Positions 2,787 to 17,868 are shown, counted from the first letter of the stretch. The stretch: DNA of 42,670 nucleotides from Candidatus Gastranaerophilales bacterium (GCA_947630355.1 CANRHJ010000001.1:1-42670); one strand, 5' to 3'. Numbers and translations: made by a program. Notes: generated by a model not told the origin, from the sequence alone.

Positions 2787-5234
<2,448 letters not shown>

Positions 5235-5253
5235 TCCCAGAGGTTAACCGCCA

Positions 5254-6312
5254 GTGAATTTTATAATAAAACTGCTAAAATTAAAAGTTACGAAGGTATT
5301 TATAAGTATACTAATGATTGCTTTTATAGTATCTTTGTACTTTTGGCGGGATTGGTACTTAAGGCAATATCACAAATGCATAGGATTTTATTACGTTAAC
5401 AAAGGCGATAAAGCATATAAGAATAAGAACTATCAAGCGGCAGTTGATTTATATAAAAAAGGATTAAGATATTATCCGGGCCATTCAAGAGCAAGCTGTA
5501 ATTTAGGGAATATATATGTCAGTTTTGAAAACTATTATGAAGCCGTAAATGCGTATGAGCAAGCACTGAAATATACTCCCAATTATATGGTATGCAGAAT
5601 GGATTTAGGGATAATATTATCCGAGAAAATGGCGAATTATGATAAAGCAATACAAGAATACGGCAGAGTTATAAACACAAATAACATTATAATAAACATA
5701 CCCTTTGTATATGATAATAAGAAATCAACAAAAGCAAATAAAGGTATAGCATATTATAACATGGGGCTTGCTTATCGCGGGAAAGCAGTATATATGGGGG
5801 ACAAAACAACCGCAGCAGTAAAATATTTAAAAAAAGCAAAAGACTCCTATTTGAACGCTAAAGAATATTTAAAGGATGATTATGATAATACCTATAATTT
5901 AGCACTGACGGAACATTTATTAGGTGATTATAATGAAGCGGCAAGAGAATATTGTAAAGCAATTAATATTGCACCTTTAAAATATGAAGCTCATTACAAT
6001 TTTGCACTTCTGCTAAGAACCATGAATTTGAATAAAGAGGCTTTGGATGAATTTGAAAAAACAACAATGTTATTGGATTATAATAACAACTATGAAAAAA
6101 ACAAATATATATACGGAATAATAACCGAAATAAAGCGCAGAATAATAAATGAAGGGGGTTATGATTTTTTAAAAGACAGGGTGGATGTAACCTCAATTTC
6201 TCAGGATGATATAGTTTATTCACATGGTAAAATTATTTCATCAAATCAAAAAAATCTTAATATGGAAAAGTTAATGAAATGCAGCTACGAAAAACAATTT
6301 GAAGAAATATAA
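5254..6312 (+). CDS. TPR-repeat protein with N-terminal membrane anchor
   Basis: 352 aa, GTG start preceded by AGAGG. N-terminal hydrophobic helix (VFISILMIAFIVSLYFW), then repeated TPR-like A..Y/..AL..P patterns (AAVDLYKKGLRYYPGH, EAVNAYEQALKYTPNY, AAREYCKAINIAPLKYEA). Confidence 0.7.
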   Translation: MNFIIKLLKLKVTKVFISILMIAFIVSLYFWRDWYLRQYHKCIGFYYVNKGDKAYKNKNYQAAVDLYKKGLRYYPGHSRASCNLGNIYVSFENYYEAVNAYEQALKYTPNYMVCRMDLGIILSEKMANYDKAIQEYGRVINTNNIIINIPFVYDNKKSTKANKGIAYYNMGLAYRGKAVYMGDKTTAAVKYLKKAKDSYLNAKEYLKDDYDNTYNLALTEHLLGDYNEAAREYCKAINIAPLKYEAHYNFALLLRTMNLNKEALDEFEKTTMLLDYNNNYEKNKYIYGIITEIKRRIINEGGYDFLKDRVDVTSISQDDIVYSHGKIISSNQKNLNMEKLMKCSYEKQFEEI

Positions 6313-7772: not shown

Positions 7773-9749
7773 ATGAAGTATATAAAATACATAGGAATAT
7801 TTTTAATTGTAATAATACCGAGCATAATAACAATATTAATATATAATGATAAAATAGCTCAAGATTCACCAAAATATTACAGACAAGGTGTAGAATTTTA
7901 TAATAACGGAGATTATTCAAACGCATACTATAATTTCGGTAAAATAAAATGGATAAGTCCTTTGTATACAACTGCAATATACAAGCAGGGCAAGGCTGCC
8001 GAAAAAGCGGGAGATTACGGCACTGCCGTTTTAAAATATAAATTATTTTTGGAGAAAAATCCCAATTCCATATTCTCCGGAACGGCAAGATACAATTTAG
8101 CAAAATGCTATTATTATCTGAAAGATTATGAAACAGCAAAAGCTCTGTTTACCGAAACTCAGACAAAAGATAAGAATAAATCAATTACGGTCAATTACTA
8201 TTTAGGTTTAACCGAGAAAAATATAAATAAAGAGCAGGCTGCCGATTATTTTATAAAATACTTGCAAGAAAACGGCGGGAACAGGAACTATGAGGTATCC
8301 GCAGCGGAAGAACTTGCATCTTTAGGCACAAATCTCACCGATGATGAAAAATTATTATTGGGAAAAACTTTTTACAATAATAAAAAGTATTTAAAATCAT
8401 TAGAATATTTATCCGTAATCCCTATGGATAAGTGCTGGGATTATTTAATACTTGCAAATCACAAGGCAGGGAACAAAGTTATAGCTAAAAAGCTCATAGA
8501 AAACGGCATTAGCACATTTTCCGACAAAATAAATAAGGAGAATTTGAATAAAATATATGATATATATACATCATACATGACCGGTACAAAATCGCGTAAT
8601 TGGACACAAATGCTGAAATTGATATCCAAACATTCATTAAGCGGGGAAGATTACGTTTTGTATAAGTTAGCACAAATGCAGCCCAAAGAAAAAGCAATAA
8701 CTTTATATACAAAAATAGCGGAGAAGTATCCCGAATCTGATTACGCTCCCGATGCCATACGCAATATATTTTGGCTTAAATATATGCAAAAAGACTATCA
8801 AGCTGCGGAAAATTTGGCATTAAACCATCTAAAAAAGTATAAGAACGTAAAATCAACCCCTCAAATTATGTTCTGGCTTGCAAAAATTTATCAAAAACAA
8901 AACAAAACAGGAGAAGCAAACAATGTATTAGCCAGATTAATTTCCAAATATCCCGATGATTATTACGGTTTGCGTGCAGAAGACATATTAAATAAAAAGA
9001 ATAATTTTTTTGAAACAAAATCAGGTAATAAATTACTTAAAAAGGATGAAGAACTTGCATTTCCGATATCATTATCAAATTTAGAGATAAAAGACTTTAA
9101 ATTAATAAATACTCTGTTTGCAATAGGTGATTATGAGATATGGCAAGATGCGGACTTTGAAAATCCCATAGCAGACAGCTGGTTTGAGGCAAGAAAGAAC
9201 AAGAAATCACGTTCAATTGTATTGGCAAGAGATGCTATAGGTAAGATGGAAATAAAACCATCAATATTAAGTGCGGCATATAAACTGGCATATCCGGCTT
9301 ATTGGACTGAAGAAATAAATATAGCTGCCAATAAATTACAATTGGATTCATATCTTATAACGGCATTAATACGGGAAGAAAGTTACTTCAATGAGCATGC
9401 CAGAAGTAATACAAATGCAATAGGATTAATGCAGTTAATGCCTTCTACCGCGAATTTTATGATATCTAAATTATCATTAGATATTCCTTTGCTCGCTGAT
9501 TTAGAAAATCCTAAAATCAATTTGTATATCGGATGTAATTATCTAAAATATTTGAAAGAAAAATTTAATAACGATTTATATACCGTCGCGGCATATAACG
9601 GAGGAGAAGGCTCCGTTCAAAAATGGATTAATACATACAATTCTGATGATTACGATGAATTCATTGAAAATATCCCGTTTTATGAAACTCAGAATTACGT
9701 AAAAAAAGTATTCCGTAGCTATCATATGTATAAAAAAATATATAATTAA
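7773..9749 (+). CDS. Soluble lytic murein transglycosylase (Slt70-like: superhelical TPR-like region + C-terminal SLT domain)
   Basis: 658 aa. N-terminal signal/anchor, long helical-repeat region, then SLT catalytic motifs LIREESYFNEHARSNTNAIGLMQLMPSTA and AAYNGGEGSVQKW. Confidence 0.88.
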   Translation: MKYIKYIGIFLIVIIPSIITILIYNDKIAQDSPKYYRQGVEFYNNGDYSNAYYNFGKIKWISPLYTTAIYKQGKAAEKAGDYGTAVLKYKLFLEKNPNSIFSGTARYNLAKCYYYLKDYETAKALFTETQTKDKNKSITVNYYLGLTEKNINKEQAADYFIKYLQENGGNRNYEVSAAEELASLGTNLTDDEKLLLGKTFYNNKKYLKSLEYLSVIPMDKCWDYLILANHKAGNKVIAKKLIENGISTFSDKINKENLNKIYDIYTSYMTGTKSRNWTQMLKLISKHSLSGEDYVLYKLAQMQPKEKAITLYTKIAEKYPESDYAPDAIRNIFWLKYMQKDYQAAENLALNHLKKYKNVKSTPQIMFWLAKIYQKQNKTGEANNVLARLISKYPDDYYGLRAEDILNKKNNFFETKSGNKLLKKDEELAFPISLSNLEIKDFKLINTLFAIGDYEIWQDADFENPIADSWFEARKNKKSRSIVLARDAIGKMEIKPSILSAAYKLAYPAYWTEEINIAANKLQLDSYLITALIREESYFNEHARSNTNAIGLMQLMPSTANFMISKLSLDIPLLADLENPKINLYIGCNYLKYLKEKFNNDLYTVAAYNGGEGSVQKWINTYNSDDYDEFIENIPFYETQNYVKKVFRSYHMYKKIYN

Positions 9750-12700
9750 TGCTGAGAAGAACTTAATTGACAAATCATTTTAAAATCTGTTTTTGCGCGC
9801 AAAATTTGTTCGGTAAGATTAGACAAATTTAATTCTTTTGAAGCGATTAACGCTCTGTTATATATCTCATTAACATTATTAACATTTATTTCATTATAAT
9901 TATTGCCGGATTTTATAACATCTTCCAAATACTGAGCAAATGCAATATAAAGCTGTATGGTTTGATATCTTAAATCATATTTTTTGGCAATAACAACAGC
10001 TTTTTCAAAATACATCTTTGCAGCATTATAATCAGCCTTTTTCTGATAGATTTTTGCAATATACATTCTGAAATAAATAATAAAGAAATTGTTATTAATT
10101 TTAGCACTTTGAGCAATTTCCAAAGATTTCAATGCGGTATTCAAAGCTTTATCATAATCGCCGTCATCAAAAGCATTTTGAACAATTAAAAGCCAAGACA
10201 ATAGCGCACCTATTGCAACTTTTTCCTTTGCAAAATAAGTTACTTCTTCATTATATATTTCTATTGCTTTTTTAATATTTCCCTCTTCTTTTAATACATA
10301 CCCGAGTATTAATTTAATTATATTTTTTATAAAGTTTTCATTAATATTATTAGCAAATGCAGCTAATTCAAACAAATCGGATTTTAATTCATTTTTATCA
10401 TCTAATAAAATTCTGTTGAAAATATTAATTAAGTTCCATTCAGCCAATAATTCGGGATCCAACTTTTTATTCTCGGACTTGTGTAAAATATTATTCAATA
10501 ATTCATTGGATTTATGTATATCTCCTTTTGCTGTATTGGCAAAAGCTTCAATTATATCAATCTGGAAACTGTAATATTCTTTGTTATATGAATAAATTTC
10601 AAGGAATTTTTTAATATCGGCAACTACATCAAAAACAACGGAATTACCTTGAATAGCGTAAGATTTGGCAAGAATAACTTTAGAATTCAGCCAAGCATCA
10701 ACAAGCAGAGAATTATATGATAAGTCGTTTTGCGCAACGTTCAAACATGTTTCTATATCGTTAATTATCTCCTCATTAACAAGATTAATTATTTGTTCGC
10801 TGTTTCCTATATTAAACAAAGCCTTTAATTTTCTTGATTTAATAAGAGCAATATCAACATCCGAGACGGTTTCATCAGAACCCGTAATAGCATTTATAAC
10901 AGAGTCAACAGCTTCGGCTGCGCCAAAATAATTTCCAGTTAAATAACAACTTTTTATAAAATAACTTGCATTATCAATAATTTTATTAATTCCTTCGGAT
11001 TTAATATCATAATCCAAAACATTGGAAAGATAACCCAATGCCTCCTGCGGGGATTTAATATAGAGCAATTTACCCAATTTTTCATAAATATCCAATTTTA
11101 AAGACTCAGAATCATCAAAGTTTTGCTCTTCAATAAGTTTTAAACACTGTTTTTGAGAAATAATATATAAATTAGTATCACCGAGCTTTGCACAAAGATT
11201 TGCGGTATCCTGCCATATTAAATATTCTTCTTCTTTTGTAAGCGCTTCCGTACACGATATTAATTTCTGCAAATTGCTTGATAATATTAAATCTTTTAAA
11301 ATCGTACAAATTTTTTCGGAGTTTTCTTTATATAATAAATCAGACTTAGCTTCTTGGTAAATCAATTTCCATAATTCCAGACTTTTAAATTCATAAGTAA
11401 AATTATCAACGGAATTTATAAAAAGTTCTTGTTTTAAGAAGTCTATAACCGAAGTAAAATTATCGCTGCTCATACCTGAGACATTTTCCAAAATTCCCGG
11501 AGAAAATCTGTATCCCAAAATAGCAGACATAAACAATACATTTTTTACAACAGGAACAAGTGTATTTAATCTGTGTTTAATAAGTTCTTCAAAAGAAGCA
11601 AAAATTTGAGGTTTATTTTCTTCATTTATTATGATTTCGCTTTCATTTACGGTAATATAGCCGCTGCTGAACAATAAAGCGGCTTCCTGTTCAAGTCTTA
11701 AAGCATTTCCGTTTGAGTTATTAATTATTTTATCCAGGTATTCTTTATCTATTATATTTCTCAAGTCAATATTTAATGATTTTTTGACAGTATCATTCAT
11801 TTCTTCATTTGTTAATTTCTCCAAAGTTAATACTTCAAAAATACCCTCATTTGATTTAGATAAGTCAAAATAGCTTTGAATAGGTTTGTCTTCTCTGTAA
11901 GCAATTAATAATTTCAACCTGTTGTTAAAATAACCGCGACGGAGCAAATACATTATAAAATCATAAGAAGCACCGTCCAATAATTCAAAATTATCTATAC
12001 AAATGACCAAGTTACTGTTCAAAGAAAAAGACTTAATAACTTTCTCTAATATTTCAAACGTATACTGCTTATTAGATAAGATATTTTCAAAATTATCCGT
12101 TTCTGAGGGATAAAAAATATTTAAGAAATCTTCCAGTTCTTCGTTATTAAGGAAATTAAACATTTTAAGAAAATTGCTTTTTTTGAAATCCTTAATAAAG
12201 GAATCATAATTAACGGTATATGTCGGAAATCCCATTATTCTTAAAAAAGCATCCTGAATAAAACCAAAACTGGTGATTTGAATTAAAGGAGTACAATTTC
12301 CGTAAAGGAATATATAGCCGTTTTGTGAAAGTTTTGCTCTGCATTGATTGAGAACAGCGGTTTTTCCGCATCCTTCAGGGCCGTTTATAGCTATAATATG
12401 CTTGTTTATTGATGTTTTTATCAGGTTTAATATATTTTTTACGGCTTGAGGTTTTATTTCAATTTTATTGTATTCTTCATTTACGCCTGTATTAACGGTA
12501 TTTTCATTATTTTGAGCTTCGTCAATACTTTTTTGTACATCTTCGTCAATAAATTCTTCCAAATTTTCAACAGTAAGCTCATCAATAAGTTCATCTTGCG
12601 TATCAGGAGATTGAGTTTCATTTTGTTCTTCAGATGTTTGTTCATCTGCCATAAATATTTTTTCCGGGTGTTCATCGGAATTTAATTCAGTATCATCACT

Positions 12701-13150
12701 GTCTGTATCGGATGTGTCTTGAGCATTTTCCTCATTATAATCAGTTTCATCATTTAAGTGACTTTCATTTTCCTCTGTATACTCGGAAGTATCATCAGGT
12801 ATTGAATTTGGGAAATCTTTTACGTCATCATTTATATCGCTGACAAACTCGCTTTGATCAGACGAGAAAGAAGAAACAATTTCAACTTGATCTTGTTCTA
12901 TCGTGAGCGGTATTTCATTGACAATATTAAAATCATGGTTACATTTTCTGCAATATGCTGCATCAGCCAGATTAACGGCATTACACGACGGGCATTTCTT
13001 TAATAATTCGGCACCGCAAGTTTTACAGACAAAACTTCCGAATGGATTAAGAGTATTACAATGATTACACAACATATTAACCTTAATCCCACAATGAGGA
13101 CATCTGAGAACATTATCAGATATTTCAGCTCCGCATTTACGACATTTCAT
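9746..13150 (-). CDS. Triple zinc-ribbon / acidic linker / P-loop STAND-type (AAA_16-like) ATPase / TPR-like helical-repeat protein
   Basis: 1134 aa. Six CxxC pairs in the first 70 aa (CRKC..CPHC..CNHC..CKTC..CPSC..CRKC) give three zinc ribbons. A D/E/N/T-rich linker of about 150 aa follows. Walker A is INGPEGCGKTAV and Walker B-like is LVICIDNFELLD. The remaining ~650 aa are helical repeats with TPR-like A/Y/L spacing. No recognisable output domain. Confidence 0.75.
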   Translation of the reverse strand: MKCRKCGAEISDNVLRCPHCGIKVNMLCNHCNTLNPFGSFVCKTCGAELLKKCPSCNAVNLADAAYCRKCNHDFNIVNEIPLTIEQDQVEIVSSFSSDQSEFVSDINDDVKDFPNSIPDDTSEYTEENESHLNDETDYNEENAQDTSDTDSDDTELNSDEHPEKIFMADEQTSEEQNETQSPDTQDELIDELTVENLEEFIDEDVQKSIDEAQNNENTVNTGVNEEYNKIEIKPQAVKNILNLIKTSINKHIIAINGPEGCGKTAVLNQCRAKLSQNGYIFLYGNCTPLIQITSFGFIQDAFLRIMGFPTYTVNYDSFIKDFKKSNFLKMFNFLNNEELEDFLNIFYPSETDNFENILSNKQYTFEILEKVIKSFSLNSNLVICIDNFELLDGASYDFIMYLLRRGYFNNRLKLLIAYREDKPIQSYFDLSKSNEGIFEVLTLEKLTNEEMNDTVKKSLNIDLRNIIDKEYLDKIINNSNGNALRLEQEAALLFSSGYITVNESEIIINEENKPQIFASFEELIKHRLNTLVPVVKNVLFMSAILGYRFSPGILENVSGMSSDNFTSVIDFLKQELFINSVDNFTYEFKSLELWKLIYQEAKSDLLYKENSEKICTILKDLILSSNLQKLISCTEALTKEEEYLIWQDTANLCAKLGDTNLYIISQKQCLKLIEEQNFDDSESLKLDIYEKLGKLLYIKSPQEALGYLSNVLDYDIKSEGINKIIDNASYFIKSCYLTGNYFGAAEAVDSVINAITGSDETVSDVDIALIKSRKLKALFNIGNSEQIINLVNEEIINDIETCLNVAQNDLSYNSLLVDAWLNSKVILAKSYAIQGNSVVFDVVADIKKFLEIYSYNKEYYSFQIDIIEAFANTAKGDIHKSNELLNNILHKSENKKLDPELLAEWNLINIFNRILLDDKNELKSDLFELAAFANNINENFIKNIIKLILGYVLKEEGNIKKAIEIYNEEVTYFAKEKVAIGALLSWLLIVQNAFDDGDYDKALNTALKSLEIAQSAKINNNFFIIYFRMYIAKIYQKKADYNAAKMYFEKAVVIAKKYDLRYQTIQLYIAFAQYLEDVIKSGNNYNEINVNNVNEIYNRALIASKELNLSNLTEQILRAKTDFKMICQLSSSQH

Positions 13151-13158
13151 AATTATAC

Positions 13159-13746
13159 CTAACTATTACCGCCGTCCATGATTTTACTAATCAATTTTGA
13201 TAATTGCAATAACCGCTTACTTATTTCGGATTGAGATAAGTTAAGATATTCAGCCATTTCTCTCTGTTTCATATTCTTAATGTATCTGAGATAGAATATA
13301 TCAAGGAAGTTTTGATTAGGAACCTCTCTGTTAATAATAGTGACAGCATCCGCAATTCTTTGCAGGCAATCTTTTGTAATAAGTATTTCTTCAATGTTTT
13401 CCTTAGGATCAGGGAAATCCAAGATAAATTCGGGCCCCGTAAGCGGAGCATTATCATTCTCCGCAGGTTTAATATCGGCAATTTTTACTTCTTTAGCGGG
13501 AACAAAGCCCTTACTTGTACGCCTTACCCTGCCTGAGTTTTTTAAAACACAAAGTATTGAAGTATTTACTACTTTTGCGACATAGTTTTCAATTTTTTGG
13601 ACATTAGAAGATGAATTAAAAATCATATACGATTTTTGGAAAGCTTCACTGCAAAAATCTTCTAATAAATCCTCGTTGCCGGAATAATTTTTATTATTCC
13701 TTACTGTTTTTTCTATTAAGCTTCTTTGTTCTTCAAGTAACAGCAC
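13159..13746 (-). CDS. Sigma-70 family RNA polymerase sigma factor (ECF-like, group 4-like)
   Basis: 195 aa, GTG start. Region-2-like DLLEDFCSEAFQKSYMIF...ENYVAKVVNTSILCVLKN. Region-4 HTH FLDIFYLRYIKNMKQREMAEYLNLSQSEISKRLLQLSKLI. Only 8 nt upstream of the STAND gene and 45 nt downstream of the anti-sigma-like gene. Confidence 0.75.
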   Translation of the reverse strand: MLLLEEQRSLIEKTVRNNKNYSGNEDLLEDFCSEAFQKSYMIFNSSSNVQKIENYVAKVVNTSILCVLKNSGRVRRTSKGFVPAKEVKIADIKPAENDNAPLTGPEFILDFPDPKENIEEILITKDCLQRIADAVTIINREVPNQNFLDIFYLRYIKNMKQREMAEYLNLSQSEISKRLLQLSKLISKIMDGGNS

Positions 13747-13791
13747 TTATTTTTTCTCTATTTTAATTATCTAAAAATATAATAACACAAA

Positions 13792-16548
13792 TTATATTTT
13801 TATTACCACTTTTAGATAATACTTATCTGCCATTAAAGCGCCCTCATTGAGAATTGGGGTTTTTTCTCCTTCAAAAGTTTCTTTAATACTTTGTAACACA
13901 ATATCATCAATTTGCTTTGAACCGCTGGTTTCCGAAATCATATCGCGTAATATATTTCCGTTATTATCAATAGCCAGCTTAACAACAACCTTATCTGTTT
14001 TAGGTGTTTCCATTGCTGAAAGTATATTCTTTCTTAAATTCAATTTAAGGATATCATCTGTTTTTTGCAGATAAGATTTAAATGTTTTGTCCGTAAACAG
14101 CTGAGGAGAACATAACCAGCTGACTTCTTTTATTGATACGGAAGAATTAGATGTCGAAAATGCATTTGTAATAGCCTTATTTACATCTTCGGTCGGTTGG
14201 TTTTGTTCGGGAAGTATATTATTTTCCGTTAATTGCGGGAATTCAACATTATCACCGTTTGCGGGATTAGGTATTTGAATACGAATCGGTTGATCTGAAT
14301 TCGGTGCAATATCAGGAATTTCGATATTTTGAGGCGTTTGGTTATTTTGTTCAGAATTAATATCAAAATAGATATCTCCGGGTATATCAAGCTGATTATT
14401 ATTTTGTTCCTGTACGGCATTGTTGGTATTATTTGCGGCTATTTGGCTATTATTATTTGAATTTTTCATTATAAAGAAAGCACCTATTCCCAAGCTGATA
14501 ACAACCAAAGCAATAATAAGGGATAATACCACTACATTTTTTGATGATTTAGCTTCATTTTCGTCAGCTTCATCATTGTCATCATCATATTCTTCATACT
14601 CTTCGTTTTCATCGGAATATTCTTCGTTCTCATCGGAATACTCTTCGTTCTCGTCGGAATATTCTTCGTTTCCTTCGGAATACTCTTCATTTCCTTCGGA
14701 ATATTCCTCGCCGCCATCTTTATATTTCTCAAATTCGACTTGATTATCTTCATTCAAATCCTGCGAAGAAGCATCTTCCACAATATCGTCGGATTTTTCA
14801 TCTTCATTATATATAATATCTTCATCCTGTGATACATCTTCTTCGGAAGGATATTCTTCAAATGTTTCTTCATTTGTTATATCAGCGGTTTCTTCAATAT
14901 TATCAATATCCGAAGTATTATTATCATCATCTTTGTATTCAATAATTTCATCATTTTCGGTTATATCGGGATTTTGAAGTTCCACGCCGTTAGCGGAGTC
15001 ATCTTCAATAATATTTAAATCGGCATTTTCCTGCAAACTTTCCGGTGCTTTGTCCGAAGTTACTACTTCAACATTCTTGACATAGTCAATAGTTCTGGCT
15101 CCGCCGTTATTTATATGAGATAAATCCTCAGAAGAGTCTTCATAAGCCGGATAAGGTTCAAATTTAGAATTTAAAAGATCTTCATCGGAAAGTTCACTGT
15201 AATTAGTATCAAAATCGGCAGATTTTTCATCTTCTGGCGGAACATTTGTTATATACGAATAAATCGGTTCACCCGTTTCATCATAATCCACTATTACTTT
15301 TTGAACCGACTCTTTTGTCTCGCTAAACATAGGTTCATTCAGTATTTCATCATCAGTTTTTTGCTCATCACTTTCTATAAACTGAATATCCGATTTATTG
15401 CCGGCATCTTCTACTATATTTAATTCATTATCGTTTAAATTATTATTTTGCTGTTCATCAATAACTCTTAAATCATTCATATCTATTTTGTCATTCAGAA
15501 TTTCCAAATTATCATCTTTATCCTCAATAATATCTGTCAATTCCTCATTATCCAAAATTTGAAGTTCCTCATCTGAGGGCAGCTCGGATACAGAAGGTTG
15601 TATCTCTTCAACATTTTCATCGGGAGAAATAAATTCTTCATCTTCATTAAACAGTTCATCCAAAATATCGGAAACCGTTTCTTCTTGCTCATCATCCTTA
15701 TTTTCCTCTTTATTTTCCGAAAAATCGGTCAGAGTATCAGTATTATCATCTTGTGATTGATTGAAATATACCGTTTCTTCTTTACCTTCGTATTGTTTAT
15801 CTTCAGCAGCCTGAGCACCTACAATTTTAAGAGTATAATCTTCAAAGAGTTCGGGATATTTTCCTATAGAAGAACTTACCATTTCAAAGCCCGTAAAACA
15901 GCAGAATTCCGTTCTGCACTGTTCACATTCAAATAAATGTTTTATTATTTTAGTCTTTAAATTATCATCTATTTCATCATCCAGCAGTGTTAAATAGTTA
16001 TTTTTAAATAATTCATGCTCCGATTCGCCGAAATCGGTAATTTTAGGTTTATTTATTTTAGTTAAAAATTCATCAAAAGAAATAAGTTCCTTAACGGATA
16101 CTTTACAATATTTATAATCAAGCGGTTCTTTTTTAATTAATGCGGTATCGCAAAATCCCGCCAAAGTAAACGAGCTTAAATTTTTATCGGTTTTAACAAC
16201 AGCATAAAAATCGGGTTCTAAGCCTTTGTCAAAATGAATTTTCGGAACTAAAAATTCATTTCCCTGAGTCATTACTCTTACATCTATATGCCAATTATTA
16301 ACATAAACATCACATATTTCATATTCCTCGTTAAGCTGAGGATTTCTGTATAAAGTCATGGATTTTTTTACTTGATTATCAGTCTTTTCCAGAAGTTTAA
16401 TTAAACTGTTCAAAGCAATTATTGAGGCATAAGCTCTTTTACGCTGCAGTTCATCTTTGAGCAAAGATGCATAAATTTTTGCATAACTATAAGCTTTTTC
16501 ATCTGTTTCCAATGTATACATTTTATCCGTTGTCATAAAATTCTCCAT
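13792..16548 (-). CDS. Giant single-pass membrane protein. Domain order: N-terminal DUF1822-like domain, ZAS (zf-HC2) anti-sigma motif, ~430-aa acidic disordered region, TM helix, N/Q/P-rich region, TonB-C-like domain
   Basis: 918 aa; RBS AGAAGGA 4 nt before the ATG. ZAS signature H-x25-H-x3-C-x2-C in SEHELFKNNYLTLLDDEIDDNLKTKIIKHLFECEQCRTEF (DNA about 15904-16026). TM helix VVVLSLIIALVVISLGIGAFFIM (DNA about 14466-14534). C-terminus VVVKLAIDNNGNILRDMISETSGSKQIDDIVLQSIKETF resembles TonB_C. The N-terminal 170 aa (AYASIIALNSL...DFYAVVKTDKNLSSFTLAGF) resemble the cyanobacterial DUF1822 pattern, from memory only. Confidence 0.7.
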   Translation of the reverse strand: MENFMTTDKMYTLETDEKAYSYAKIYASLLKDELQRKRAYASIIALNSLIKLLEKTDNQVKKSMTLYRNPQLNEEYEICDVYVNNWHIDVRVMTQGNEFLVPKIHFDKGLEPDFYAVVKTDKNLSSFTLAGFCDTALIKKEPLDYKYCKVSVKELISFDEFLTKINKPKITDFGESEHELFKNNYLTLLDDEIDDNLKTKIIKHLFECEQCRTEFCCFTGFEMVSSSIGKYPELFEDYTLKIVGAQAAEDKQYEGKEETVYFNQSQDDNTDTLTDFSENKEENKDDEQEETVSDILDELFNEDEEFISPDENVEEIQPSVSELPSDEELQILDNEELTDIIEDKDDNLEILNDKIDMNDLRVIDEQQNNNLNDNELNIVEDAGNKSDIQFIESDEQKTDDEILNEPMFSETKESVQKVIVDYDETGEPIYSYITNVPPEDEKSADFDTNYSELSDEDLLNSKFEPYPAYEDSSEDLSHINNGGARTIDYVKNVEVVTSDKAPESLQENADLNIIEDDSANGVELQNPDITENDEIIEYKDDDNNTSDIDNIEETADITNEETFEEYPSEEDVSQDEDIIYNEDEKSDDIVEDASSQDLNEDNQVEFEKYKDGGEEYSEGNEEYSEGNEEYSDENEEYSDENEEYSDENEEYEEYDDDNDEADENEAKSSKNVVVLSLIIALVVISLGIGAFFIMKNSNNNSQIAANNTNNAVQEQNNNQLDIPGDIYFDINSEQNNQTPQNIEIPDIAPNSDQPIRIQIPNPANGDNVEFPQLTENNILPEQNQPTEDVNKAITNAFSTSNSSVSIKEVSWLCSPQLFTDKTFKSYLQKTDDILKLNLRKNILSAMETPKTDKVVVKLAIDNNGNILRDMISETSGSKQIDDIVLQSIKETFEGEKTPILNEGALMADKYYLKVVIKI
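14587..14716 (-). repeat. In-frame 21-bp tandem repeat (about 6 copies) encoding (N)EEYS[ED][GE]N heptads inside the acidic region of the anti-sigma-like protein
   Basis: The + strand units TCGGAATATTCTTCGTTCTCA / TCGGAATACTCTTCGTTCTCG / TCGGAATATTCTTCGTTTCCT / TCGGAATACTCTTCATTTCCT / TCGGAATATTCCTCGCCGCCA start at 14612 and are spaced 21 nt apart, with a degenerate copy upstream. The protein reads EEYSEGNEEYSEGNEEYSDENEEYSDENEEYSDENEEYEEY. Confidence 0.9.
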
Positions 16549-16646
16549 AAAATCCTTCTACTTTATAAGATTACATAGTCTTAAAAAATATTCCAAAATA
16601 TGTTATAATTAGTTTAGTCTCTTTATGGAAAAATAAATCAGTTTAA

Positions 16647-16666: not shown

Positions 16667-16739
16667 AAAAATATAAAATACACAATTTTATAGATTTTTG
16701 TGTTTTATATACTTGCAAAGTATAAATAAGGAGGTAAAT

Positions 16740-17177
16740 ATGATAAGTCCGGTAAGTTTCAGAGCATCTCAAGATTTCAACCAAATGATTAGCAAACCCC
16801 AATCATATACTACAACCCCGCAAGCTGCTGCAGGTTTGTCTGATGGGAAAGGTAAAAGTCATAAGGCAGGTAAAGTTATTTTAACCATAGCAGCAGTAGC
16901 TGCAGCTTTAGGCGGTTTAGCTTATGCCGCATCAAAAGGTAAATTAAATCCTAAAGAAGGCGGTAATAAGTTTATTGAAAAAGCTAAAGAATATGCAAAA
17001 ATAGTTGGTGATACCGTTTACAAAGCATATTCAACCGTTAAAGGAATGGTAATTAAAACACCAAAAAAACGTACTCCGGTTCGCTACCCTCATTCAGCAG
17101 CCCAGACCGAAAATCCAATCCGCTACAAAATCACCGGTCACAGTAGACCGTTACCCACGCCATCTTTAATAAAATAG
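16740..17177 (+). CDS. Small membrane-anchored protein, GGNK[FY]I family, paralog A
   Basis: Start trimmed from the track ORF (16698) to ATG 16740, which is preceded by a perfect AAGGAGG at 16728-16734. 145 aa: MISPVSFRAS..., one hydrophobic helix (VILTIAAVAAALGGLAYAA), then KGKLNPKEGGNKFIEKAK. Followed by a hairpin terminator. Confidence 0.7.
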   Translation: MISPVSFRASQDFNQMISKPQSYTTTPQAAAGLSDGKGKSHKAGKVILTIAAVAAALGGLAYAASKGKLNPKEGGNKFIEKAKEYAKIVGDTVYKAYSTVKGMVIKTPKKRTPVRYPHSAAQTENPIRYKITGHSRPLPTPSLIK

Positions 17178-17268
17178 CGGACGTTTCATTTTAAATTTTA
17201 AAATGTAAAGCTAATCCGGTGTCGCTTTTTCAAGTGTCTAATTAATACGGAAAAAAGTATGTAAAATA

Positions 17269-17301
17269 AAAACAAGAGAAATTAATCTCTTGTTTTTATT
17301 T
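17269..17301 (+). terminator. Rho-independent terminator after paralog A
   Basis: AAACAAGAGA-aattaa-TCTCTTGTTT followed by TTATTTTT. 10-bp perfect stem plus a T-rich tail. Confidence 0.75.
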
Positions 17302-17424
17302 TTGTAACAATATTTATATAATTTAACTTGTATTAATTTTTTGTAATAAAATAATAAAAGATAGCAAATTATTTTTTTACCGTTTTTATAATAATCGAAA
17401 TTGAAATAAATACAGGAGTAAAAA

Positions 17425-17868
17425 ATGAAATTACAAGCAATAAACCAAACAAATAATATGCAATCATGCAGTTTCGGTAAAAAAGCACACAAATCAAGTG
17501 CAGGCAAAGTTTTAGCATCAACAGGAGTTGTGGCAGGTGCAATCGCAAGTTCCATAGTTCTTGCAAGAAAAGGCAAATTAAACCCTGTTGAAGGCGGTAA
17601 TAAATATATTGAAACAGCAAAAGCTTTATTGAAAAAGCCCGCTGATTTCTCATCAAAAATGGTTACAAAGGCAGTTAACAAGTATAAAATAGCAGCAAAA
17701 GGTAATTATAAACTTTCTTCTTTGGTTGACCGACCTGCAAGCTATATAAGACATTATCAAAAAGTTATTCCTCAAAAAATCGCAAATATAAAAGGCGGAT
17801 TTACAAAATTTATTGATACAATGGCTGATAAAGCGGAATCTTGTTTTAACAGAATGAAATTCAACTAA
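17425..17868 (+). CDS. Small membrane-anchored protein, GGNK[FY]I family, paralog B
   Basis: 147 aa; RBS AGGAG 8 nt upstream. HKSSAGKVLASTGVVAGAIASSIVLARKGKLNPVEGGNKYIETAK aligns with paralog A (KGKLNP.EGGNK[FY]IE.AK nearly identical; GAAGGCGGTAATAA is shared at DNA level). Confidence 0.75.
   Translation: MKLQAINQTNNMQSCSFGKKAHKSSAGKVLASTGVVAGAIASSIVLARKGKLNPVEGGNKYIETAKALLKKPADFSSKMVTKAVNKYKIAAKGNYKLSSLVDRPASYIRHYQKVIPQKIANIKGGFTKFIDTMADKAESCFNRMKFN

Follow-up and report, generated by a model that had tools for sequence, protein, structure and literature searches.

A three-gene operon on the minus strand of a 42,670-nucleotide stretch of DNA from a Candidatus Gastranaerophilales bacterium (GCA_947630355.1, CANRHJ010000001.1:1-42670; the whole of this stretch is called the window here) encodes a membrane anti-sigma protein with a predicted zinc-binding anti-sigma (ZAS) domain, a sigma factor of the extracytoplasmic function (ECF) type, and a zinc-ribbon protein that joins a nucleotidase of the STAND class (signal transduction ATPases with numerous domains) to a tetratricopeptide repeat (TPR) arm. 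We read this operon as a positively autoregulated ECF sigma/anti-sigma signaling system with a lineage-specific third component, and give that reading a probability of about 0.5. The source names on homologues place the host in the Gastranaerophilales (Melainabacteria), a group of widespread gut bacteria that are uncultured and, among non-photosynthetic organisms, most closely related to cyanobacteria; to our knowledge, their gene regulation has never been the subject of experiments.

A syntenic operon of three genes

The listing of open reading frames (ORFs) shows three same-direction genes between positions 9746 and 16548:

13792-16548, minus strand: gene 1, membrane anti-sigma-like protein, 918 aa, ATG start
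13159-13746, minus strand: gene 2, ECF-type sigma factor, 195 aa, GTG start
9746-13150, minus strand: gene 3, zinc-ribbon STAND NTPase/TPR protein, 1134 aa, ATG start

The genes are separated by 45 nt (13747-13791) and 8 nt (13151-13158). On the upstream side the operon is bounded by a divergent small gene on the plus strand, which begins at 16698 or 16737 and leaves an intergenic region of 150-190 nt, and on the downstream side by a convergent gene for an SLT/TPR lytic transglycosylase (7773-9749, plus strand). Coordinates, strands, gaps and boundaries are all as they had been given in a first-pass annotation, which a model produced from the sequence alone, and its proposal of a single operon is supported by the tight, conserved spacing together with one conserved ECF-type promoter before the first gene.

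Judged by their homologues and by synteny across 80 species-level genomes, the three ORFs are real genes. Homologues number more than 100 for the STAND protein and 314 for the sigma factor. The scan for synteny compared the sigma alignment with a single genome for each GTDB species and gave 80 loci, every one of which belongs to the Gastranaerophilales clade. The anti-sigma gene adjoins the sigma gene in every testable locus (76 of 76) and the STAND gene follows the sigma gene in 69 of 74, with median gaps of 49 nt between anti-sigma and sigma and 9 nt between sigma and STAND (n=79). The triad first noticed in the window is therefore found together in relatives and is syntenic over an order-level clade, and it is kept even where STAND identity to the protein of the window drops to 25-31% (loci L005, L089, L105 and L123). 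The preservation of an 8-9-nt gap over such deep divergence suggests that translation of the STAND gene is coupled to that of the sigma gene.

A divergent ECF sigma factor

Among the three proteins, conservation is highest in the 195-aa product of gene 2 (median identity 66% across species), whose identification as a divergent group-4 (ECF) sigma factor, with a sigma4 and a putative sigma2 domain, is strongly supported in silico by profile matches and structural models. Residues 21-187 match positions 25-162 of the 165 in the TIGR02937 sigma70-ECF model (E=5e-11), with a score of 42.4 bits that lies just under the curated cut-off of 42.9, and the same model is matched by all 39 aligned homologues (best E=2.4e-14). 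Region 4 is evident at the level of the family, since Sigma70_r4_2 and Sigma70_r4 match in 39 of 39 homologues (best E=4e-7). Several homologues bear the NCBI name "sigma-70 family RNA polymerase sigma factor".

The AlphaFold model of the sigma factor (predicted local distance difference test, pLDDT, 74) has three helices in its N-domain and four in its C-domain, with about 45 disordered residues connecting the two. The linker between sigma2 and sigma4 is predicted to run from about residue 78 to 122, which is below 50 aa, and regions 1.1 and 3 are absent, as in ECF sigma factors. In a Foldseek comparison with the PDB, the top of the list consists entirely of ECF sigmas, namely SigH, SigL, SigE and AlgU, with probabilities of 0.9-0.99; the E-values reach only 0.0075-0.06 because the two domains of the model are oriented differently. 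The three-helix N-domain aligns over its full length to SigH, SigL and SigE, and the region-4 matches have TM-scores of 0.6-0.7. A sequence profile built from the sigma alignment found nothing in the PDB better than E=0.03-0.1, and the sole match of a tblastn search against plasmids was a Sphingomonas sigma. With the TIGR02937 and Foldseek matches, the initial description of this protein as ECF-like holds. Its start codon is GTG in 52, TTG in 20 and ATG in 14 of 86 loci, so that a weak start (GTG or TTG) is conserved in 72 of 86, and this may keep the sigma factor sub-stoichiometric to its anti-sigma.

A membrane anti-sigma protein with a long acidic tether

The product of gene 1 has a modular architecture, the parts of which are predicted as follows:

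16039-16548, minus strand: DUF1822-like alpha/beta N-domain (anti-sigma residues 1-170)
15829-16038, minus strand: class-I anti-sigma (ZAS) domain (residues 171-240), with ligands H178, H204, C208 and C211
14584-15828, minus strand: acidic disordered cytoplasmic linker (residues 241-655), with EEYS[DE][EG]N heptads
14467-14535, minus strand: single transmembrane helix, VVVLSLIIALVVISLGIGAFFIM (residues 672-694)
14149-14466, minus strand: N/Q/P-rich periplasmic spacer after the transmembrane helix
13795-14148, minus strand: TonB_C/TolA_C-like periplasmic domain (residues 801-918)

Strong in-silico support, from sequence and structural models, is available for the overall arrangement of this 918-aa protein, in which a class-I zinc anti-sigma domain would lie in the cytoplasm and a TonB_C-like domain in the periplasm, with one transmembrane helix between them. 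The ligands of the ZAS domain follow the pattern H-x25-H-x3-C-x2-C, the spacing of which we take to be the same as that of RsrA C11/H37/C41/C44. The H-x3-C-x2-C part is present in 73 of 83 distinct anti-sigma orthologs, and a histidine lies 26 residues upstream in 67 of those 73. Three helices are predicted by AlphaFold in this region (residues 175-190, 195-207 and 209-215), and deep-branching lineages keep the helices while the zinc ligands are missing. Loss of zinc ligands is common among class-I anti-sigma domains.

The linker between the ZAS domain and the membrane spans 415 aa (35% D+E; isoelectric point, pI, 4.05). Part of it is encoded by a 21-nt tandem repeat at 14596-14710 (5.5 copies, 86% matches), which gives rise to the EEYS[DE][EG]N heptads. 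The orthologs range from 673 to 1787 aa, a range accounted for by this hypervariable linker, which varies more than sixfold in length, from 200 to more than 1300 aa. The combination of length variation with a tandem repeat suggests that the linker repeats undergo expansion and contraction. Beyond the linker, residues 672-694 are the sole hydrophobic window of the protein (Kyte-Doolittle ≥1.8), and the helix, as read from the sequence, contains no histidine, so that the S-H-L-S motif of TonB and TolA (S-x3-H-x6-L-x3-S) is absent. The C-terminal domain scores 22.0 bits with Pfam TonB_2, equal to the cut-off of 22, and 22.1-25.7 bits in orthologs, and tblastn detects the TonB_C-like domain in 85 of 86 loci. 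The conserved ligands, the single transmembrane helix and the TonB_2 score together uphold the first-pass assignment of a ZAS-type membrane anti-sigma protein with a DUF1822-like N-terminus and a TonB_C-like C-terminus. A word-indexed homologue search with the N-terminal 263 aa gave 10 truncated proteins only, and the orthologs compared here were drawn from the locus set instead.

In orthologs at 57-62% identity the N-terminal head matches DUF1822 (PF08852) with 37-45 bits (cut-off 25) at model positions 1-166 of 370, and the similarity covers only the N-terminal half of the family model. The AlphaFold model has pLDDT values of 85-94 over residues 78-170, and the conserved positions are D80, D89-x-R91, P102-K103 and D113-x-Y115. 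The top Foldseek matches are nucleases of the PD-(D/E)xK class (Hjc, NaeI, D212, NhoI and HincII), of which the best is Hjc (E=0.015, probability 0.95); none reaches E≤1e-3, and TM-scores are 0.27-0.49. The canonical (D/E)xK motif is absent from the conserved residues of the orthologs, a sequence profile of the N-terminal alignment found no relevant match in the PDB, and a tblastn search of all plasmids gave no match to the DUF1822-like/ZAS head. The head thus weakly resembles a nuclease fold, which we regard as a lead and not a finding; were the likeness real, DUF1822 would be a family with the restriction-endonuclease fold.

A conserved ECF-type promoter and probable autoregulation

The intergenic region between the operon and the divergent small gene contains two predicted promoters:

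16569-16594, minus strand: ECF-type promoter, TTGGAATA-N13-TGTAATCT (TGTAATC(T)), 21-46 nt upstream of the anti-sigma ATG
16581-16609, plus strand: sigma70-type promoter with extended -10 (TTAAAA-17-TG-n-TATAAT) for the divergent small gene; 10/12 match, TG present

Written as hexamers, the first of these is TGGAAT-N16-TAATCT, which has ECF promoter geometry. In an alignment of the regions upstream of the anti-sigma gene, TTGGAATA-N13-TGTAATCT occurs with invariant spacing in 64 of 74. The exact pattern GGAATW-N13-YGYNNTC is found once in the 42.7-kb window, where 0.18 matches are expected by chance, while a scan of the window with one mismatch allowed gave 11 matches, 10 of them at positions without promoter context. 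A position weight matrix (PWM) at a threshold of 16 bits or more yields 70 hits on both strands of 2.47 Mb, one per locus, all on the operon strand and upstream of the anti-sigma gene; four loci that were outside the building of the matrix (L071, L072, L075 and L080) nevertheless score 37-41 bits. In about 70 lineages, then, no other site of this kind lies closer to the operon than about 16 kb.

The same pattern recurs beyond the set of loci. In a blind scan of metagenomes for the exact pattern, 8 of the 80 loci listed have it directly upstream of DUF1822-type anti-sigma genes, whose N-domains are 24-30% identical to that of the window, and two of these eight are full triads with sigmas 36-41% identical. 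The remaining matches are mostly due to chance, and those of them with the best PWM scores have no consistent downstream gene. Taken together, these data are strong in-silico evidence for positive autoregulation of the operon.

The two promoters in the window overlap back to back. An extended -10 element (ATTATANCA on the operon strand) lies 4-36 nt upstream of GGAATA in 48 of 68 distinct loci, and the overlap raises the possibility that the sigma70-type and ECF-type promoters could be mutually exclusive. A short inverted repeat, TCTAT-ATAA-ATAGA(G), follows the -10 element directly in many loci (16555-16568, minus strand, in the window, near the predicted transcription start), and could be an operator or a hairpin in the 5' untranslated region. 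In locus L089 (1084-7784), a deep lineage, the triad is kept, the anti-sigma lacks the H-x3-C-x2-C ligands and the promoter is degenerate (PWM 12.7). A generic scan of the window for sigma-70 promoters and terminators returned 60 sites where 48 are expected, which is uninformative in a sequence like that of the window, with a G+C content of 31%.

A constrained STAND NTPase with zinc ribbons and no recognizable output domain

The product of gene 3 is assembled from four predicted regions:

12917-13150, minus strand: three CxxC...CxxC zinc ribbons (STAND residues 1-78)
12467-12916, minus strand: acidic disordered linker (residues 79-228)
11471-12466, minus strand: AAA_16-type NTPase module (residues 229-560)
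9749-11470, minus strand: TPR/MalT-like helical sensor arm (residues 561-1134)

Four Pfam families score above their cut-offs in this protein, namely DZR (39.4), Zn_Ribbon_1 (34.4), AAA_16 (34.4; cut-off 32.6) and TPR_12 (30.8; cut-off 30.1), and TPR_MalT and TPR_8 fall just under theirs on the sensor arm; most of the homologues have a precomputed TPR_MalT match. Among 117 homologues, the twelve cysteines of the zinc ribbons are invariant in 115-117, and both the Walker A motif (G257-x2-G260-x-G262-K263-[ST]264) and the Walker B motif (hhhh-D386-N-F-[ED]389) are invariant. On the strength of these invariant motifs, the STAND protein is predicted to be an active, constrained NTPase. The linker is poorly aligned and gapped among homologues, and has 34% D+E and a pI of 4.05 over its 150 aa; long D/E/N-rich linkers had been noted for both large proteins in the first-pass annotation.

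A Pfam scan of the protein gave no match to helix-turn-helix (HTH), kinase, cyclase, caspase, nuclease, protease or TIR domains, and no N- or C-terminal effector or DNA-binding domain was seen beyond the three zinc ribbons, so that the first-pass picture of a triple zinc-ribbon STAND/TPR protein without a recognizable output domain stands. When 1.8 billion cluster representatives were searched exhaustively by HMMER with residues 226-1134, 689 relatives emerged (E≤1e-3). The order of zinc ribbons, long linker, AAA_16 and TPR is retained by relatives at 19-25% identity, and the few relatives that bear a name belong to Gastranaerophilales or Vampirovibrio. In locus L212, a 612-aa protein (4133-5971) with a weak match to DUF87 (HerA-like ATPase) and an acidic tail is encoded 30 nt before a distant stand-alone STAND homologue, and STAND proteins of this family may there have another partner.

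A proposed mechanism

By analogy with the established ECF/ZAS paradigm, which the steps of sequestration, release and amplification follow here, the ZAS domain would hold the sigma factor at the membrane in the resting state. Release could be triggered by a periplasmic or envelope cue acting through the TonB_C-like domain, by a thiol or zinc-reactive cue at the ZAS domain, or by both, and the freed sigma factor would transcribe its own operon and a regulon. The STAND protein would add a cytoplasmic, nucleotide-gated input, in which the TPR arm senses a ligand, ATP-dependent oligomerization follows, and the zinc ribbons dock on the DUF1822-like/ZAS head, or on the sigma factor or RNA polymerase, and so modulate sigma release or activity. 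This last step is the most speculative, and we propose it tentatively, at odds a little short of even. A regulatory STAND protein is favored because its gene is tightly coupled to the sigma gene, because strong constraint acts on its ATPase site and zinc ribbons, and because it has no recognizable output domain.

Weighing the reading against its alternatives

Several observations weigh against a positively autoregulated switch with a STAND protein as third component, some of them bearing on the assignment of its parts and others on how the parts belong together. At the level of single sequences, the anti-sigma of the window has no match to DUF1822 at E≤1, and its zf-HC2 score is sub-threshold (16.5 bits; cut-off 22.2), as are those of its orthologs (13.8-21.0 bits, all below the cut-off); the zf-HC2 model has only 35 positions, and the low score weakens the ZAS assignment without excluding it. 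Similarly, the sigma factor of the window reaches 21.4 bits with Sigma70_r4_2 (cut-off 25.7), and Pfam Sigma70_r2 matches neither this protein nor any of the 39 homologues. With respect to the promoter, loci L003/L004 (5365-11999) represent a deep lineage in which the triad is kept and no GGAATA-N13-TGT promoter is recognizable, and neither the PWM scan of all loci nor the exact-pattern metagenome scan found a second promoter site near the operon. That this sigma factor reads this promoter is something we infer from the ECF autoregulation paradigm. Finally, the STAND gene is missing from the operon in 5 of 74 loci, and STAND homologues below 28% identity with the same DZR-AAA_16-TPR architecture stand alone in 6 of 7 sampled loci; the family can therefore function without an adjacent sigma factor, and the role of anti-anti-sigma or co-regulator suggested for it in the first-pass annotation is one that we purely infer.

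The five STAND-less loci sit at two places on the sigma tree, from which it appears that the STAND gene has left the operon at least twice. Given the adjacency of sigma and anti-sigma in every testable locus on the one hand, and STAND loss and stand-alone STAND homologues on the other, the sigma/anti-sigma pair is, by its gene neighborhoods, the invariant core of the system and the STAND protein a very frequent, non-obligatory third member. The same pattern is what an ordinary two-partner ECF envelope-stress module would produce if the STAND protein were co-transcribed cargo, co-induced with the pair and serving a function of its own, for example as scaffold or sensor, and the STAND gene is indeed last in an autoregulated operon, the usual place of regulon members. 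Against this, no effector domain that could serve as an output is detectable in the STAND protein; furthermore, the gap of 8-9 nt to the sigma gene has persisted through deep divergence, as if translation and stoichiometry of the two proteins were coupled, and fusions and gene neighborhoods in cyanobacteria join sigma-type HTH or ECF modules to STAND NTPases. We therefore consider the cargo explanation possible but rather unlikely.

The first-pass annotation had also put the operon forward as a candidate conflict module. In such a system the STAND protein would sense an invader in an Avs-like manner, the DUF1822-like domain would sense or cut nucleic acid, and the ECF sigma factor would start a defense or suicide program, of the sort proposed for the EACC2-caspase/ECF/DUF1822 systems and reported for DdvS/DdvA. 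The STAND and TPR sensor architecture and the weak but consistent PD-(D/E)xK fold matches of the DUF1822-like domain are in keeping with this, as is the placement of ECF sigma factors with DUF1822 in predicted conflict systems (PMC8195603); in Myxococcus, moreover, an ECF/anti-sigma pair is reported to control CRISPR/CBASS (PMC11506125). The genomic context speaks otherwise. Nearly every species-level genome found has the locus, in a single copy, and its surroundings are a fixed housekeeping neighborhood that is found again in relatives, not a variable island: on one side lie genes for GyrB, a TPR protein, a GGDEF cyclase and the SLT protein, and on the other those for two small membrane proteins, prephenate dehydratase, phosphoglucomutase and a PRK-family kinase, with no flanking mobile-element genes in the window. 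Five proteins searched against PADLOC-DB v2 gave no meaningful match (the trivial ones were HTH_VI on the HTH of the sigma factor, with E=8e-4, and mad8 on the P-loop, with E=0.005), domains of caspases, nucleases or toxins did not appear in the Pfam scan, and the N-domain lacks the canonical (D/E)xK triad. A defense island is rejected on the core context and the lack of PADLOC matches, and because the locus is core, single-copy, syntenic and without defense hallmarks, we regard a conflict function as improbable.

Least credible of all is the view that too much has been read into a short Cys/His motif, that the 918-aa protein serves primarily to span the envelope, as a structural or energy-transducing protein like TonB or TolA, and that the 195-aa protein is a sigma-like HTH regulator rather than a sigma factor; for although the transmembrane helix, N/Q/P-rich spacer and TonB_2 match resemble the layout of TonB and the zf-HC2 and Sigma70 scores lie below their gathering thresholds, with no match to Sigma70_r2, a true transducer is ruled out because the helix lies at residue 672 and not at the N-terminus and lacks the histidine of the S-H-L-S motif, the four-ligand ZAS spacing is conserved, the full-length TIGR02937 match and the exclusively ECF Foldseek matches cover sigma2 as well as sigma4, and a promoter of ECF geometry is conserved upstream.

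Divergent small membrane proteins and other features of the locus

Upstream of the operon, and divergent from it, the window encodes two paralogous small proteins:

16737-17177, plus strand: small single-transmembrane protein 1, 146 aa from the ATG, with N-terminal MISPVSF...KPQxY
17425-17868, plus strand: small single-transmembrane protein 2, paralogous, 147 aa

Both have the conserved N-terminal MISPVSF...KPQxY motif, and they share a segment composed of the transmembrane helix followed by KGKLNP-x-EGGNK-[FY]-IE. A homologous small gene is divergent from the operon in nearly all loci, including those without STAND, and a second copy is present in many. The small proteins have no Pfam or PADLOC match, and the PWM scan found no ECF-type promoter before the small gene. 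A small single-transmembrane protein is probably associated with the operon module, and may act in the membrane as a partner of the anti-sigma. A hairpin with a 17-bp stem and a T-rich tail lies between genes 1 and 2 of this small pair (17263-17302, listed on the minus strand); its sequence is palindromic and could therefore terminate the first small gene on the plus strand.

A bolder extension of the mechanism brings one of these proteins into the switch. The TonB_C-like domain of the anti-sigma would read the MISPVSF... peptide of the small protein in the manner of a TonB box, the STAND protein would be the first nucleotide-gated third component of an ECF sigma/anti-sigma system, and the whole would act as a dual-input switch of a kind so far undescribed; we consider this doubtful as a complete scheme.

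At the other end of the operon, the STAND gene has 4 nt (9746-9749) in common with the convergent SLT/TPR gene, where their stop codons meet, and in locus L001 an NrdD/NrdG pair is inserted between these two genes. No tRNA or Rfam features were found in the window.

Significance

The operon is one of the most conserved regulatory loci of the Gastranaerophilales. Its defined sigma factor, inhibitor domain (residues 171-240) and promoter, TTGGAATA-N13-TGTAATCT, are testable parts, and the motif can be used for regulon prediction; the set of sigma factor, anti-sigma and promoter is also a candidate orthogonal part for synthetic biology. Among its striking features are an anti-sigma domain on an acidic tether of 200 to more than 1300 aa and a DUF1822-like head that is maybe nuclease-like. 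Were the STAND protein to control the sigma factor, an NTP-gated cytoplasmic sensor of the MalT/Apaf-1 class would join the known inputs of ECF sigma factors, namely proteolysis, conformational change, phosphorylation, partner switching and C-terminal extensions, and the ECF-DUF1822 systems of multicellular cyanobacteria would become mechanistically more accessible. The dual-input switch, if true, would moreover provide a function for the DUF1822-ECF-STAND/caspase neighborhoods of cyanobacteria.

Comparison with known systems

In its core, the operon resembles the well-known ZAS/ECF pairs RsrA-SigR, ChrR-SigE, RslA-SigL and RsiW-SigW. These likewise consist of a two-domain ECF sigma factor encoded beside its inhibitor, with H/C-x25-H-x3-C-x2-C ligands in a short helical domain, membrane-anchored forms that have a single transmembrane helix and an extracytoplasmic domain, and an apparently autoregulated promoter of ECF geometry. 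Here, in contrast, the anti-sigma domain is not N-terminal but comes after a DUF1822-like alpha/beta domain of 170 aa, an acidic linker of 415 aa intervenes between the anti-sigma domain and the membrane, the extracytoplasmic domain is TonB_C-like, and a STAND NTPase is the third member of an operon with the order anti-sigma, sigma, STAND, in which sigma2 is too divergent for Pfam Sigma70_r2.

Large single-pass anti-sigma proteins that signal across the inner membrane to an ECF sigma factor are also known from FecI-FecR-FecA/TonB and DdvS-DdvA, and a TonB-type periplasmic module takes part in the signaling. The present system differs in that the TonB_C-like fold is within the anti-sigma itself, there is no FecR domain, and neither an adjacent gene for a TonB-dependent transducer nor an iron or defense gene context is present. 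The STAND protein shares with MalT, LAL and AfsR regulators the succession of a P-loop STAND NTPase and a TPR/MalT-like arm, for which ligand- and ATP-gated oligomerization that controls transcription is the paradigm. Those regulators, unlike this protein with its zinc ribbons alone, have a DNA-binding domain of their own (LuxR HTH or SARP); any transcriptional effect of the STAND protein must therefore pass through the co-encoded sigma or anti-sigma.

The first-pass annotation had known of no characterized system of this kind. This stands insofar as no characterized homologous triad was found in the open-access literature, and a known ECF group with a described STAND partner was rejected, as the ECF re-classification paper mentions neither Melainabacteria nor an ATPase or caspase partner (PMC7826278); it needs amending insofar as there are two in-silico precedents. 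The first consists of the Sigma70_r4_2-NB-ARC-TPR_MalT fusions ("SigR", family K) catalogued in filamentous cyanobacteria (PMC11119718), which also join a sigma-type DNA-binding module to a STAND NTPase with a MalT-like TPR arm, in the same phylum-level lineage. The fusions are single polypeptides with region 4 only, on the plan of a MalT-like one-component regulator, whereas in the present operon the AAA_16-type STAND and the membrane anti-sigma are proteins separate from each other and from the sigma factor, which is complete with sigma2 and sigma4.

The second and nearest precedent is that of Kaur, Iyer, Burroughs and Aravind (2021), who described in silico neighborhoods of ECF sigma and DUF1822 genes with an EACC2-caspase protein whose variable C-terminus is sometimes a STAND NTPase (PMC8195603). 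Co-located ECF sigma and DUF1822-like genes are found here as well, and the two systems have in common a large multidomain sensor, possibly STAND, a cyanobacterial lineage, a proposed transcriptional output and the fact that they are known from sequence analysis alone. They differ in that three zinc ribbons take the place of the caspase on the STAND protein (Caspase, CHAT and Peptidase_C14 have no match in the three proteins at E≤1 in Pfam, which holds no EACC2 model among those tested), in that DUF1822 is represented by no more than its N-terminal half, joined here to a ZAS domain, a transmembrane helix and a TonB_C-like domain, and in that the context is core and housekeeping rather than island-like. 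The operon is thus an ECF sigma/ZAS anti-sigma system with unusual additions and a conserved STAND partner not described for such switches, and its nearest published description, the ECF-DUF1822-caspase/STAND neighborhoods, is purely computational.

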